Positions 19,850 through 24,689 are shown, counted from the first letter of the stretch. The stretch is DNA of 43,776 nucleotides from a virus (IMGVR_UViG_2537562190_000013), one strand, 5' to 3'. Made by a program: numbers and translations. Notes: generated by a model from the letters alone, not told the origin.

Positions 19850-20845
19850 GTGACCGTGAGAGCACTACTGACCCCTGAAATTGCCCCGCGTATGGGGATC
19901 GTATTGTTCAGGCCAGGTTCAGAGCTGATGCCCCTGTTTATGCAGGGGCGTGTCCTGCTGGAGCCAGAGCCGGAACGTTATTCATCTTTCGCCAGTGGTG
20001 CCGTTCCGGCGGCAACACAACCGCTGGCGGATGATCCTGCCGTTCGGACCGTGTTCCGCAATGAGGCAGTGATCCGTCGTGCTGGTGGCGTGGAATGTCA
20101 TGAAAGCTGGTTACTTCGTGAAAAGGGCTGTCAGTGGCCTCATTCTGACTGGCACAGCGAGAACATGACCACAATGCGGCACGCTCCGGGAGCAATTCGT
20201 CTGTGCTGGCACTGCGATAACCAGCTGCGTGACCAGTTCACGGAACGGCTGGAATCAATGGCAACGGATAACTGTGCCCGCTGGGTGTTGTCTGTCGTGC
20301 GTCGGGATCTCGGTTTTGATGACAGTCACGTTGTGACAATGCCGGAACTGTGCTGGTGGCTGGTTCGTAATGATCTGGCGGATGCCTTACCGGAAAGTGC
20401 AGCCCGTAAGGCACTGAGATTACCGAAGCCTGTTGTGCCATCTGTCACCCGGGAAAGTGACCTTGTGCCTTCGGTTCCTGCCACCAGCATCATCCAGGAT
20501 AAGGCGAAAAAGGTGCTGGCGCTGAAAGTGGATCCGGAGTCGCCGGAGTCTTTTATGTTACGCCCAAAACGTCGCCGCTGGGTTAATGAAAAGTACACGC
20601 GCTGGGTTAAGACGCAGCCGTGTGCATGTTGTGGAAAGCCTGCTGATGATCCCCACCATCTGATAGGCCACGGTCAGGGGGGAATGGGTACAAAAGCGCA
20701 TGATCTCTTTGTGTTGCCTTTGTGCAGAAAGCATCACGACGAGCTGCATGCGGATACCGTGGCATTTGAAGAGAAGTATGGCTCCCAGCTGGAGTTGATA
20801 TTTCGTTTTATCGATCGTGCGCTGGCAATTGGTGTGCTGGCCTGA
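19850..20845 (+). CDS. DUF968-family prophage protein (YdfU-like) with C-terminal Cys/His cluster
   Basis: CACCGKPADDPHHLIGHG...LCRKHHDELH motif block. Confidence 0.6.
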   Translation: MTVRALLTPEIAPRMGIVLFRPGSELMPLFMQGRVLLEPEPERYSSFASGAVPAATQPLADDPAVRTVFRNEAVIRRAGGVECHESWLLREKGCQWPHSDWHSENMTTMRHAPGAIRLCWHCDNQLRDQFTERLESMATDNCARWVLSVVRRDLGFDDSHVVTMPELCWWLVRNDLADALPESAARKALRLPKPVVPSVTRESDLVPSVPATSIIQDKAKKVLALKVDPESPESFMLRPKRRRWVNEKYTRWVKTQPCACCGKPADDPHHLIGHGQGGMGTKAHDLFVLPLCRKHHDELHADTVAFEEKYGSQLELIFRFIDRALAIGVLA

Positions 20846-20847
20846 TT

Positions 20848-21219
20848 TTGTGGAGAAAGTTGATGCGTGATATGTATGAAGTAATGGATCGTTGGGGAGC
20901 TTGGGCTGCTTCAGACAATAGCGGAGTGGACTGGCAGCCGATAGCGGCTGGTTTCAAGGGACTTTTACCTCATGGCAAAAAGTCACGGATTCAGTGTGAT
21001 GATGACGAAGGCATCATGATAGACAGTTGTGTGGCTCGGTTGAGAAGGTATAAACCAGAGGAATATGAGCTCATCATCGCCCACTTTGTTATCGGTATCT
21101 CATTACGCACTATTGCGAAGAAGAGAAAATGCTCTGATGGCACAATTAGGAAGGAACTGCAAACTGCAATGGGGTTTGTTGACGGCTGTTTAGCAATGTT
21201 AGCTTATAGTATGGCATAA
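20848..21219 (+). CDS. Q: Late-gene antiterminator Q (small Q family)
   Basis: MRDMYEVMDRWGAWAA...WQPIAAGFKGLL... pattern recalled from E. coli prophage Q proteins; sits upstream of the lysis cassette. Confidence 0.7.
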   Translation: MWRKLMRDMYEVMDRWGAWAASDNSGVDWQPIAAGFKGLLPHGKKSRIQCDDDEGIMIDSCVARLRRYKPEEYELIIAHFVIGISLRTIAKKRKCSDGTIRKELQTAMGFVDGCLAMLAYSMA

Positions 21220-22413
21220 AAAATAAAATAGATTTACTGCCGATTTTTCAAAAAAGACTGGGAACTGTTTATATCCAACGTAAATAAGGCCTCCATAAAA
21301 CATGGCTGATGCGAGATATTTAACAGTTCTCATCCTTTTTTTAGCTTTATCAATCAAACCTGTAATGCTACTCTTAATACTATCTGCATTATCTTTGATT
21401 TCTTTATTTTCTTCAAACTTTAAATACTTATCGAAAGCGGACTCCACTCGAGAACGTAAGTTGTCGAATGTTTCATTGAATATCTCAATAGAAATGTAAT
21501 TGACTTTTTTTATCATCCAAAGTCCTGCGATAATCAATATTGCTTCGGTTGTTTCATTAGCCTTCACTAAGCCACCAGCAGCTATTAATGCACCGGGAAT
21601 AGTCAATGCTTTTGTCTGATTAGATGATATGAATTCGTTAATTTTACTCGTGAACTCAAGATTTTTCTCATCGAGTTCGTTAAGAATTTTATTTACAGAA
21701 AACCTCTTTGTGTAAATCTCATATAGTTCATCATATTTTTTCCTGACGAGTTCAGTAGAGTTAAGCAAGTCAAAGAAATTGAACGTACCATTTGCTTTAA
21801 ATACTTCGTTTATGGCTGAGCGTATAACGAGCTTGCGCTCGCTTTTGTGTAAATCATTGATTTTTATTGTGTCGAGAAGCTCCTTTATAATTTCATATTT
21901 AAGAGACGAGTTCGATAAGCGATTAATCTCGCTATATTGTAAAAAATGCGTGAGTTCGACTGTATAACTTTTGTCTTCATTGGTGAAAAATAAGACAGAG
22001 CAGTCACTGTTATGATGATCAGCAATTAATGAAAGGATATCTTTCCACATAAAGAAAATATGGATTTTTTCGATGCTTTCATTCTTAGAAGTAGGGAGTA
22101 TTAACGGCGTTCCGATGATATAATTTTTCGGAAGAGCGTTTTGGGTGTTTACTCTAGACCAAAAAGACTCAACATTCTCATAAATTATAGCGTCATCCCA
22201 AGATGAAGCTTGGCGATCTAGCCAAATTTCATTATTTTCGATGCAGGTTGTTGCCTTTTTATAACCTATAGATTGTAACAGTCTAATTATTTCAGAACTA
22301 TTTACAATAACAATGCTTTCTTCAAGACTTATGACAGTGTAGTAGCCCTCAACTCTGCTTGAGGCTCCGTTAATAATCTGCGCTAATCTTGATAAGTCAT
22401 CAGCAATTGTCAT
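21199..22413 (-). CDS. Hypothetical protein with C-terminal hydrophobic segments; second gene of Q-lysis cassette
   Basis: 404-aa AT-rich ORF; hydrophobic stretches ALTIPGALIAAGGLV, AILIIAGLWMI, LASAMFYGGLIYVGY; 3' end overlaps the Q 3' end convergently. Confidence 0.6.
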   Translation of the reverse strand: MTIADDLSRLAQIINGASSRVEGYYTVISLEESIVIVNSSEIIRLLQSIGYKKATTCIENNEIWLDRQASSWDDAIIYENVESFWSRVNTQNALPKNYIIGTPLILPTSKNESIEKIHIFFMWKDILSLIADHHNSDCSVLFFTNEDKSYTVELTHFLQYSEINRLSNSSLKYEIIKELLDTIKINDLHKSERKLVIRSAINEVFKANGTFNFFDLLNSTELVRKKYDELYEIYTKRFSVNKILNELDEKNLEFTSKINEFISSNQTKALTIPGALIAAGGLVKANETTEAILIIAGLWMIKKVNYISIEIFNETFDNLRSRVESAFDKYLKFEENKEIKDNADSIKSSITGLIDKAKKRMRTVKYLASAMFYGGLIYVGYKQFPVFFEKSAVNLFYFLCHTIS

Positions 22414-22415
22414 TA

Positions 22416-23591
22416 TTAGCTGTCTCTATATCTTTTGAGTTCATCATAATTTGCCTGACTCAATTTTATCACAATTTCGCATTTGTTGTCAGTGAGAATT
22501 ACAGGCTTATTTGACTTTTCGTCTCCAATAGCTCCACGCATTATTTTCAACTTAAAATTATTGTCGTTATCTGCCACTTCAATTGTAAGCGCGCTTTCAG
22601 CTGCTTTAGGAGTTGGTTCAAATTGAGGGTCAATCTGGAAACCATTAAGATTAACAAAATCGACAAACGTTCCCTTACATTTGTGTGAATCAGTCAGGCA
22701 TGAGTCAATTATTTTTGAAATATCCTCTATCTTAACGGACTTATTTCCGTGTTTATCTTTTGATTTTTTTTCCAGTAAGGATTTAACTTCATTGTCAATA
22801 GTATCACGCAGTACACGACCGAGTGAGTTTTTACTAGCAAAAATATCTATAGCACTGAATAATTGCTGAATGCTTCTTTTATTGTCCGAATCATGTCGGC
22901 AACCTAATGAGTCTTTGAAAAAATCGCTTTTAGATTTACCTTGCAAGAAATGTACATATGAGTCACCCTTGTTTTCTGGATAACTGGCTTCGAATAAAGT
23001 TAAATCGAACATCGCAGCCTGCCGTAAGGCATCGGTATTAATTGGATTTAATCTTGTTGGGGTCAACTTATCCGAATCAAAGTCATAGGCGCTTTGTTTA
23101 TCAACCATTACGATTAGAAGTTTCCCCAAATCCTCTGGTTCGGTAGACTTATAGTGGATGAAAACAACGCTCCCCCCCTGAAGTTGGGCAACTCTCGATT
23201 CGTTATTAGCATTATGTTTAAGCTTCTCTATTATAGCTCTAGATAAATCAATGAATTCATTATTTTTATTAATGTATTTTTTTAGGATCGTAGGAATGGA
23301 TGAAGGGTTGTGATCTGAGTCTAGGAAGTTATGAAATTTGTTTTTTCGGCTAAATTTTTTCTCAATTCTGGTTATGAATTCAGATGTGACTTCATTTTTT
23401 AGATCCCAAACTTCACCTAATCGATAATCAAATGCTCTTGAATCATTTTTTTCAAGATTTGCTGTTACAGCACCAATAGGAAAGTACGATTGTTTGCCCA
23501 GCACTACAACATGAGGCGTGGCACCGCATTTATCGCAAGCTACAGTTGGGTCGTCAAGAACATTGCCACATTCTAAACAAGTTATATCCAT
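22416..23591 (-). CDS. Zinc-ribbon plus NdpA/YejK-like (nucleoid-associated protein family) domain protein; first gene of Q-lysis cassette
   Basis: N-terminal CLECG...CDKCG; central GGSVVFIHY ... DLTLFE ... YVHFLQGKSKSDFFKDSLG block resembling the YejK family as recalled. Confidence 0.55.
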   Translation of the reverse strand: MDITCLECGNVLDDPTVACDKCGATPHVVVLGKQSYFPIGAVTANLEKNDSRAFDYRLGEVWDLKNEVTSEFITRIEKKFSRKNKFHNFLDSDHNPSSIPTILKKYINKNNEFIDLSRAIIEKLKHNANNESRVAQLQGGSVVFIHYKSTEPEDLGKLLIVMVDKQSAYDFDSDKLTPTRLNPINTDALRQAAMFDLTLFEASYPENKGDSYVHFLQGKSKSDFFKDSLGCRHDSDNKRSIQQLFSAIDIFASKNSLGRVLRDTIDNEVKSLLEKKSKDKHGNKSVKIEDISKIIDSCLTDSHKCKGTFVDFVNLNGFQIDPQFEPTPKAAESALTIEVADNDNNFKLKIMRGAIGDEKSNKPVILTDNKCEIVIKLSQANYDELKRYRDS

Positions 23592-23708
23592 TATATATCC
23601 CGAATTATAAGAATGAATTTTTATGTGGCTGAAAATTCTATCAAAACACTAACGCGTACGCAAAAAGTATTGTATTGTGTTAAGAGTGGTTACTTCGCCA
23701 CACAGCTT

Positions 23709-23740
23709 AAACCCGCCGTCGAGCGGGTTTTGTCGTTTCT
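23709..23740 (+). terminator. Intrinsic terminator hairpin (tR'-like) upstream of lysis genes
   Basis: Perfect 8-bp stem AAACCCGC/GCGGGTTT with 6-nt loop followed by TGTCGTTTC. Confidence 0.55.
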
Positions 23741-23882
23741 GGGCCTGGGGATTCGTTGGGCCTAGTCTATCCCGCAGTTATCCATTGGCTCGGCTTCTTT
23801 GACGTTTCCGCTTCTGATTTGCGGTACATGATGTTTCCTCAATTTGCACCTGCTGTATCAGCGAGGTGAGAGATAACTACAA

Positions 23883-24209
23883 ATGCCTCATAACCCAAAT
23901 ACTTGGCTGGAGTTGGTCCAGAGCTGGTGGCGTGGAGACACACCGCTGGGCGCAGTGATTATGTCGATCGTTATGGCTGGCTTGCGCATTGCCTATTTTG
24001 GCGGTGGTGGTGGCTGGAAGAGAAAAACGCTCGAGATTTTGCTCTGTGGCGCTCTGACGCTGACCTTTGCATCCGCGCTTGAGTATGTCGGATGGCCTAA
24101 ATCGCTTTCTGTTGCCATTGGTGGTGGCGTTGGGTTGATCGGTGTCGATGCTATTCGTGGGGCTGCAATGAGAGTAATCGGTAACAAGTTTGGTGGCTCT
24201 AAGGAGTAA
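23883..24209 (+). CDS. Holin
   Basis: 108-aa protein with hydrophobic segments and Gly-rich region, directly upstream of endolysin; GAGGTGA ribosome-binding site. Confidence 0.7.
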   Translation: MPHNPNTWLELVQSWWRGDTPLGAVIMSIVMAGLRIAYFGGGGGWKRKTLEILLCGALTLTFASALEYVGWPKSLSVAIGGGVGLIGVDAIRGAAMRVIGNKFGGSKE

Positions 24210-24212
24210 TTT

Positions 24213-24689
24213 ATGCAGGTACTAAATTCCCAGCGTAAAGCTTTCCTGGATATGGTGGCATGGTCAGAAGGAACGGATAACGGGCGACAACCGACACGTA
24301 ACCACGGTTATGACGTTATTGTCGGTGGCGAACTCTTCACTGATTACTCCGATCACCCTCGCAAACTTGTCACGCTAAACCCGAAACTCAAATCAACAGC
24401 TGCAGGCCGTTATCAACTTCTTTCACGTTGGTGGGATGCTTACCGCAAGCAGCTTGGGCTGAAAGACTTCTCTCCCAGAAGCCAGGACTCAGTGGCATTA
24501 CAGCAGATTAAAGAGCGTGGCGCTTTACCGATGATTGACCGCGGCGATATTCGTCAGGCAATCGACCGTTGCAGCAATATCTGGGCTTCACTGCCGGGCG
24601 CTGGTTATGGTCAGTTCGAGCATAAGGCTGACAGCCTGATTGCAAAATTCAAAGAAGCGGGCGGAACGGTCAGAGAGATTGAGGTATGA
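24213..24689 (+). CDS. R: Endolysin, lambda R-type lytic transglycosylase
   Basis: Near-identical by recollection to lambda R ([20 protein letters not shown]...[23 protein letters not shown]...). Confidence 0.9.

Follow-up and report, generated by a model that had tools for sequence, protein, structure and literature searches.

This study concerns a two-gene cassette in IMGVR_UViG_2537562190_000013, a viral DNA of 43,776 nucleotides (the whole stretch analysed, hereafter the window), which is almost certainly the DS-1 anti-phage defence system and whose genes are here called DS-1A and DS-1B. Both are minus-strand open reading frames (ORFs), of 391 and 404 amino acids (23591-22416 and 22413-21199), and only 2 bp separate the stop codon of the 391-residue frame from the ATG of the 404-residue one. 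A preliminary description, made from the sequence alone, had presented them as tightly linked, antisense to the late operon and more AT-rich than their flanks, and these points stand. In fact, the guanine-plus-cytosine (GC) content of the cassette is 34.9%, against 49.2% elsewhere in the window, and a GC profile computed over 400 bp falls to 0.33-0.36 precisely across 21200-23600, that is, at the gene borders. The cassette is built as follows:

22416..23591, minus strand: DS-1A, 391 amino acids, encoded first in the operon, nucleoid-associated anti-phage protein of the YejK/NdpA-like (NA37) type
23526..23579, minus strand: four-cysteine motif of DS-1A, residues 5-22, CxxC-10-CxxC (C5-x2-C8, C19-x2-C22), a putative zinc ribbon from sequence reading
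22464..23402, minus strand: NA37/YejK-like two-domain clamp region of DS-1A, residues 64-376 (Pfam envelope)
21199..22413, minus strand: DS-1B, 404 amino acids, encoded second in the operon, partner with a membrane anchor, putatively the effector
21919..22413, minus strand: acidic alpha/beta domain at the N terminus of DS-1B, residues 1-165, to which DS-1A may dock (AlphaFold secondary structure)
21490..21615, minus strand: hydrophobic helical hairpin of DS-1B, residues 267-308 (family hydropathy profile)
21256..21327, minus strand: C-terminal hydrophobic helix of DS-1B, residues 363-386 (hydropathy profile; AlphaFold helix 337-383)
23592..23663, minus strand: promoter and 5' untranslated region of DS-1, candidates only (promoter scan and sequence reading)

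The identity of the cassette is carried by two equivalog models of NCBIfam. DS-1A scores 451.4 bits against NF053868, DS1_1_antiphage (cut-off 330, E 2e-135, model positions 3-369 of 369), and DS-1B 375.2 bits against NF053869, DS1_2_antiphage (cut-off 315, E 3e-112, model positions 1-337 of 337). Moreover, DS-1A is the same as WP_000355468.1 in all 391 residues, DS-1B is identical to WP_000150292.1 across the 399 residues printed in Table S8 of the paper that reported the system (PMC13092281), and the order A then B on one strand is that of the validated DS-1. The prefix DS is short for "DefensePredictor discovered system", the term of DeWeirdt, Mahoney and Laub (bioRxiv, January 2025; Science, 2026; PMC13092281). 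The working name of DS-1 was D390, and the unit cloned was NZ_RRVY01000002.1 220602-222994, of 2393 bp (PMC13092281), a length equal to that of positions 21199-23591 of the window. The paper lists the YejK domain among the newly validated defence domains, offers no mechanism for DS-1 and does not discuss its position in a prophage (PMC13092281). Its genes are the same as those of the window. In RefSeq the two products are named "nucleoid-associated anti-phage protein" and "anti-phage protein"; DS-1A belongs to PHROG 3767 and DS-1B to PHROG 5023 (E 2e-158). The two WP accessions occur in no searchable main text of the literature.

DS-1 is thus an already known and experimentally validated system, not a new one, and the statement in the preliminary description that the pairing matches no named defence system has to be withdrawn. 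Its wider reading of the locus, a prophage anti-phage module made of a DNA-binding NdpA-like protein and a membrane partner, agrees with the NA37 match, the two equivalogs and the published protection. A PADLOC search had been suggested as a check; PADLOC-DB v2 (2023) returned no match for either protein, both of which are recognised by the NCBIfam equivalogs. That this null might mean an absence of function was considered and rejected, as the age of the database explains it, and a 2023-era collection with no model for either protein is also the reason why the pair can still seem unnamed. A genuine defence system, still missed by tools of the 2023 era (PADLOC-DB v2), was thus picked out by a reading of raw sequence; since DS-1 has meanwhile been published, validated and given curated models, this by itself adds little that is new. 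The findings that go beyond the published DS-1 are the conserved A-then-B pairing, a DS-1B without significant structural relative, the position upstream of the late promoter and the other cassettes of the same slot.

The published phenotype was obtained in E. coli MG1655 with DS-1 on a low-copy plasmid under its native upstream region, and the assay is marked as replicated (PMC13092281). The values of -log10 efficiency of plating given in Table S7 of that paper (PMC13092281) are:

Bas1: 7.6, no plaques
Bas26: 2.7
Bas3: 1.7
T3: 1.7
T5: 1.0
T7: 0.9
SECphi27: about 0, only plaque size reduced

All 26 entries of the working name D390 in Table S7 were covered, and T4 and lambda have no row among them (PMC13092281). 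The native upstream region suffices for the function of the cloned unit (PMC13092281), and the corresponding stretch of the window holds several candidate signals. A Shine-Dalgarno-like GGGA precedes DS-1A at 23601-23598, and two minus-strand promoters are predicted, one with TTGATA (23644-23639) and AAAAAT (23622-23617) at a spacing of 16 and one with TTGCGT (23663-23658) and TAGAAT (23640-23635) at a spacing of 17; a perfect TATAAT at 23609-23604 on the same strand is a further candidate -10 box.

The first protein had been likened to NdpA/YejK, with a lack of significant NdpA similarity named as the finding that would speak against it. Against the Pfam family NA37/YejK, DS-1A reaches 84.5 bits over residues 64-376 (cut-off 24.6, E 1.2e-23), so the similarity is significant, and a profile of the DS-1A family matches YejK 9be2 at E 1.6e-19. 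The AlphaFold model has a mean predicted local distance difference test (pLDDT) score of 85, and its sole significant Foldseek match in the PDB is again E. coli YejK 9be2 (E 3e-14); as modelled, DS-1A has the YejK fold. YejK clamps DNA as a dimer and shows no preference for particular sequences (PMC11229321). DS-1A shares with this housekeeping protein the two-domain fold and the Pfam family, but the identity is about 19% and the YejK equivalog NF001557 is not reached (81.4 bits, cut-off 341). Furthermore, DS-1A carries an added N-terminal four-cysteine motif, has largely lost the second basic cluster of YejK, and is found on a mobile element with an obligate partner. Judged from its sequence, DS-1A is a distant paralogue of YejK and not YejK itself.

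The N-terminal zinc ribbon that had also been proposed is borne out in part. The CxxC...CxxC pattern is there, and it is conserved in the enterobacterial members of the DS-1A family and in P0161, a metagenomic member. The Pfam thresholds and a presence throughout the family do not follow: Zn_Ribbon_1, DZR and Zn_ribbon_3 give 11-13 bits on DS-1A, below their cut-offs of 25-27, and the motif is absent from the Pseudomonas, Oceanimonas and other members, those of Pseudomonas having an acidic tail where the zinc ribbon would be. The AlphaFold model is of low confidence across the four-cysteine stretch (pLDDT 48-65), and the HHpred table of the DS-1 authors lists a NinF-like zinc beta-ribbon at 86% (PMC13092281).

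For DS-1B, the picture of a large soluble N-terminal part followed by C-terminal hydrophobic helices is upheld by the AlphaFold model (mean pLDDT 85.3), with an alpha/beta domain at residues 1-165 and long helices after it, and by the hydropathy of the family. The N-terminal domain has an isoelectric point (pI) of 4.8 and a net charge of -9, and the median charge of the soluble part in the family is -8. Three hydrophobic segments are kept family-wide (about 267-286, 287-308 and 363-386 in the family hydropathy profile). Conservation within the family peaks over residues 224-284, leading up to the hairpin, and the invariant or nearly invariant columns are K268, A269, P273, A275, A278 and G280. 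No match to DS-1B was found in Pfam or PADLOC, and structure searches with its model, Foldseek against the PDB among them, gave no significant relative. Concrete targets for mutagenesis are offered by the model of DS-1B, its conserved hairpin and the residues listed as conserved, and the action of the membrane partner was left open by both published studies, that of DS-1 and that of the PANGU systems considered below.

In a word-indexed search B gave 69 clusters and A gave 110, most of them from Enterobacterales, together with Pseudomonas, Oceanimonas, Vibrio and Vogesella. An exhaustive profile search with DS-1B extended the family to 781 clusters (at 50% identity) with E <= 0.001, 377 of them with E <= 1e-10; nearly all of the 150 relatives listed out of the 781 are 380-450 amino acids long. 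One B homologue, from P. aeruginosa, lies at the end of a Pf filamentous prophage (28% identical, E 1e-36). In 19 of the 20 loci examined, one of them a degraded copy (L020, Photorhabdus), the B gene has an NA37 gene immediately upstream and in the same orientation; in the twentieth (L011), a contig end removes the place where the A gene is expected. Wherever a checked locus is intact, A is followed by B, and this includes two very distant pairs. Moreover, the matrices of pairwise identity of A and of B are correlated over 16 loci (r = 0.93, a value reached in none of 2000 Mantel permutations), from which it follows that the pair travels as a unit.

Some of these loci have features of their own. 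In P. aeruginosa (L002-L004, 6001-8422) the DS-1-like proteins are of 386 and 425 amino acids, their genes overlap by 17 nt, and the pair sits at the edge of a Pf-type prophage beside Zot, DUF2523 and coat-region genes. In Photorhabdus viridis (L020, 3594-4972) the pair is decayed, with A truncated and B split across two frames. In Oceanimonas, HicA/HicB lie close to the DS-1-like operon (L005, 9699-10456), and a domainless protein of 402 amino acids is encoded on the opposite strand between the two.

Among 5426 complete E. coli genomes, 106 carry the cassette at >= 99% identity, and a copy of 85% identity stands beside a Q gene in Klebsiella. An antiterminator of the Q family is annotated beside all 30 E. 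coli matches listed out of 107. At least two prophage backgrounds are involved: 79 genomes have the junction of the window, leading to a lambda-type holin, and the remaining ones have a Stx-phage-type late region, with transfer RNA (tRNA) genes and the nanS-p esterase and without stx. In the INPHARED phage collection there was no DNA match to the cassette and no tblastn match to DS-1B, and DS-1A found there only NA37 proteins of about 20% identity, in F116-like and P. protegens phages. DS-1 is therefore seen in prophages and not in sequenced virions.

In the window, the cassette is flanked by the following elements:

20848..21219, plus strand: antiterminator Q (Pfam PF06530 Phage_antitermQ, E 3e-47)
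23643..23731, plus strand: late-promoter element of 89 bp, PR' plus a tR'-like hairpin, by homology to the PR' of Sakai Sp5
23883..24209, plus strand: holin of the lambda S family, first late gene (Pfam PF05106, E 6e-25)

The location given in the preliminary description, between Q and a tR'-like hairpin with the holin behind it, is therefore correct. Q and DS-1B are convergent and their 3' ends overlap by 21 bp (21199-21219), with no terminator between them. The hairpin, at 23709-23730 on the plus strand, is of the terminator type, with a stem of 8 pairs and a T-run behind it (dG -13.3 kcal/mol). After the holin comes an ORF of 158 amino acids, which has no Pfam match here and is a GH24 lysozyme in the RefSeq annotation of matching genomes, and the ORFs past it look like an Rz/Rz1 spanin pair. 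Upstream of Q, at 19850-20845, a DUF968 protein also has a putative HNH nuclease domain (HNHc_6, 26.9 bits, cut-off 26.6), and the DUF968 and KilA-N genes are part of a module that is 95-97% identical between the prophages compared.

A consensus promoter scan detected no plus-strand site between DS-1A and the holin, and so missed the late promoter, which was for this reason placed by homology to Sakai Sp5. The predicted PR' has its -10 box, TATTGT, at 23673-23678 and would start near 23685, so that the hairpin would occupy about +25 to +46 of the late transcript. The mapped distances in Sakai Sp5 put an RNase E site at +173 and the end of tR' at +258 from the PR' start (PMC7547250), and the start, the RNase E site and the tR' end all fit in the aligned Sp5 stretch. 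The 89-bp element is common to 367 phage records, among them Stx1a and Stx2a phages, SfII and cdtI; its block TAAGAGTGGTTAC is invariant in all five aligned sequences, and parts of it match many cassette-free prophages across E. coli genomes. On its right side the variable segment is bounded at 23643. Two further checks concerned RNA: the idea that the element is the small RNA StxS was rejected, as the published StxS distances fall further downstream in Sp5, and an Rfam scan of 20800-24300 gave nothing.

By this alignment, DS-1 has Q on one side and PR' on the other; it is divergent from PR', and it is outside the late transcript and antisense to it. This position differs from that of the Shiga toxin genes, whose slot the cassette had been said to occupy, since it is on the strand opposite to the late genes and upstream of the PR' start predicted at about 23685. 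Stx2a_1447 has a Q of 92% identity, and there stxAB stands about 2 kb beyond, preceded by PR', the terminator, a gene for a methylase and three for tRNAs; likewise, stx of Sakai Sp5 follows PR', the terminator and tRNA genes. Because DS-1 is back to back with PR' and convergent with Q, early rightward transcription at induction would run antisense through the cassette. Such antisense transcription may silence DS-1 and so spare the prophage its own abortive system.

A place at the regulatory core of the prophage, flanked by Q and PR', would also suit a different role, in which DS-1A is above all a regulator or silencer of genes of the prophage or the host, DS-1B is an accessory membrane protein and defence is a side effect. 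NdpA-like proteins on mobile elements can reportedly regulate the transfer of the element, and NdpA2 of the PAPI-1 island is the precedent. We regard this role as very unlikely, because a plasmid with no more than the two genes protects a prophage-free host against unrelated lytic phages. Furthermore, the pair also occurs in a Pf filamentous prophage, beside HicAB and near an IS110 transposase, with no phage genes nearby at some sites, and its strict A-B pairing points to a self-contained machine of two parts.

As to what else occupies the Q-to-late-promoter slot, a comparison among related prophages had been proposed, and it brought to light unrelated two-gene cassettes in three of them. The intervals compared were 20965-23642 of the window, 2033-3445 of L022, 1396-2959 of L023 and 841-2455 of L024. 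Among lambdoid phages, the slot between Q and the late-promoter element holds differing AT-rich (32-39% GC) antisense cassettes of two genes:

E. coli F637: 313 and 149 amino acids, antisense, no family match in the libraries tried
Stx2a_1447: 343 and 179 amino acids, antisense, no family match in the libraries tried
Shigella phage SfII: 340 and 194 amino acids, antisense, PADLOC candidate PDC-M53A/B, 32% GC

The second protein is hydrophobic in each of these cassettes, and BLASTP found no similarity among those of DS-1, F637, Stx2a_1447 and SfII. PDC-M53 of SfII resembles DS-1 in having the same slot, the antisense orientation, the AT-richness, the two genes and the hydrophobic second protein, whereas its proteins are unrelated to those of DS-1, with no BLASTP similarity and no NA37 domain. 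It is conceivable, and we put it forward quite tentatively, that the PF06530-type Q-to-PR' interval is a lambdoid defence hotspot in which cassettes of a soluble and a membrane protein are swapped, and that DS-1B belongs to a new class of helical membrane effectors switched on by a DNA-free clamp. No published description of a Q-to-PR' hotspot was found in a brief literature search. The cassettes of F637 and of Stx2a_1447, the latter a Shiga-toxin phage, have no family assignment and are cheap candidates for new defence systems.

A possible mode of action is offered by PANGU, a group of two-gene operons whose sensor is a nucleoid-associated protein of the YejK type (bioRxiv 10.64898/2026.04.06.716658, April 2026). 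In type I (Pag1A with the GRel toxSAS Pag1B), Pag1A binds long DNA without sequence preference and leaves the nucleoid once the nucleases of T4 break down the chromosome; the freed clamp binds and activates the effector through an acidic "DNA-mimicking" domain, and with a DNA-binding mutant the pair becomes constitutively toxic (10.64898/2026.04.06.716658). Such an effect is reported for Pag1A with K200A, R203A and K204A. Type II consists of a clamp and a membrane protein whose N-terminal domain is acidic and whose membrane domain is C-terminal; both genes are required, neither is toxic alone, and growth follows an abortive-infection pattern (10.64898/2026.04.06.716658). Pag2A, the type II clamp, fused to green fluorescent protein, is located on the nucleoid and becomes diffuse after T4 infection, and it binds the acidic domain with a dissociation constant (KD) of 19 nM (10.64898/2026.04.06.716658).

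The type II results also bear on whether DS-1 could be a toxin-antitoxin or addiction module that stabilises the prophage, with DS-1B as a membrane toxin restrained by DS-1A. A tight two-gene operon with a hydrophobic second product would agree with this, and many such prophage cassettes are toxin-antitoxin-like. Nevertheless, the single-gene constructs of type II PANGU are not toxic and its clamp is an activator, not an antitoxin, and neither DS-1 protein matches a toxin or antitoxin family in Pfam, NCBIfam or PADLOC, so that we give this explanation hardly any credence.

T5-like phages and T7 and T3 are classic degraders of host DNA, and lambda does not degrade it. A mechanism of release and activation is favoured for DS-1 because of its PANGU-like architecture and of a spectrum that has T5-like phages and the host-DNA degraders T3 and T7 in it and lambda not; by analogy, we lean slightly towards it as the most likely mechanism of the system. 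In the uninfected cell, DS-1A dimers would be clamped on long chromosomal DNA. Degradation of the chromosome by a phage would set DS-1A free, and free DS-1A would bind the acidic cytoplasmic domain of the membrane-anchored DS-1B. This binding would switch on the helical, hydrophobic part of DS-1B, which might then compromise the inner membrane or otherwise arrest the cell, so that the infection is aborted before progeny are released. Taken as a whole, the best explanation of the locus is probably that of DS-1 as a two-gene, AT-rich and self-promoted system of a lambdoid prophage, expressed from the lysogen and acting by release and activation.

Several points weigh against this explanation. 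The first basic DNA-contact cluster of YejK is kept only in part by DS-1A (K219, K221, K226), the second is mostly gone, with K329 alone left, and the protein as a whole is not basic (pI 6.3). The putative zinc ribbon has no assigned role in the proposed mechanism. A membrane-damaging activity of DS-1B is a conjecture, since the structure searches gave no significant match, and for PANGU itself the authors state that the engagement and activation of the membrane effector are undetermined (10.64898/2026.04.06.716658). Moreover, type II PANGU comes from "E. coli upec", and its likeness to DS-1 is architectural and drawn from the description, so that DS-1 is at most a candidate for membership of that family or for identity with its system. 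The assays differ as well: type II PANGU was assayed on T4 with induction by isopropyl beta-D-thiogalactopyranoside (IPTG), DS-1 under its native promoter, with no published row for T4.

The complete effect on Bas1 (7.6 logs, no plaques) would fit direct immunity, and it could thus be asked whether DS-1 blocks phages at the site of entry, in the manner of Kiwa or of superinfection exclusion. DS-1B would then sense attachment or injection and recruit the DS-1A clamp onto phage DNA, where replication or transcription would be blocked without killing the cell. The pairing of a membrane protein with a protein of DNA-clamp fold would agree with this, as would carriage by a prophage, which DS-1 has in common with many exclusion systems. 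Such a block seems unlikely all the same. Neither protein has a match in PADLOC, whose 2023 date lets us assume that it holds Kiwa models; the Foldseek search of the PDB yields YejK only and no component of Kiwa; and the clamp of type II PANGU, at first on the nucleoid, turns diffuse on infection, with the growth of abortive infection. Kiwa consists of the membrane protein KwaA and the DNA-binding effector KwaB. An identity with Kiwa was tried and rejected: KwaB was sought among the structural matches of DS-1A, which comprise only YejK, and the matches of DS-1B are likewise without a Kiwa chain.

Release and activation also sets DS-1 apart from Kiwa. The two share the general logic of a membrane protein and a DNA-binding protein, but the signalling suggested for DS-1 runs in the opposite direction, from a DNA-bound sensor to a membrane effector. 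With type I PANGU, DS-1 would share the principle of the sensor, a YejK-like clamp that comes off degraded DNA and turns to the acidic domain of the effector, whereas the type I effector is a soluble alarmone synthetase and DS-1B has hydrophobic helices and no such domain. As for type II PANGU, a zinc ribbon is not mentioned for Pag2A and is a putative feature of DS-1A. In other respects the architecture of DS-1 fits that of type II: in both, the YejK-like gene comes first and the partner is linked to it (a gap of 2 bp in DS-1, a criterion of <40 bp for PANGU), and both systems come from E. coli and have a defence phenotype. The acidic N terminus and the hydrophobic C-terminal segments of DS-1B agree with the description of the type II partner, which has an acidic, DNA-mimicking N-terminal domain and a transmembrane region; for DS-1B, mimicry of DNA and insertion into the membrane would be predictions.

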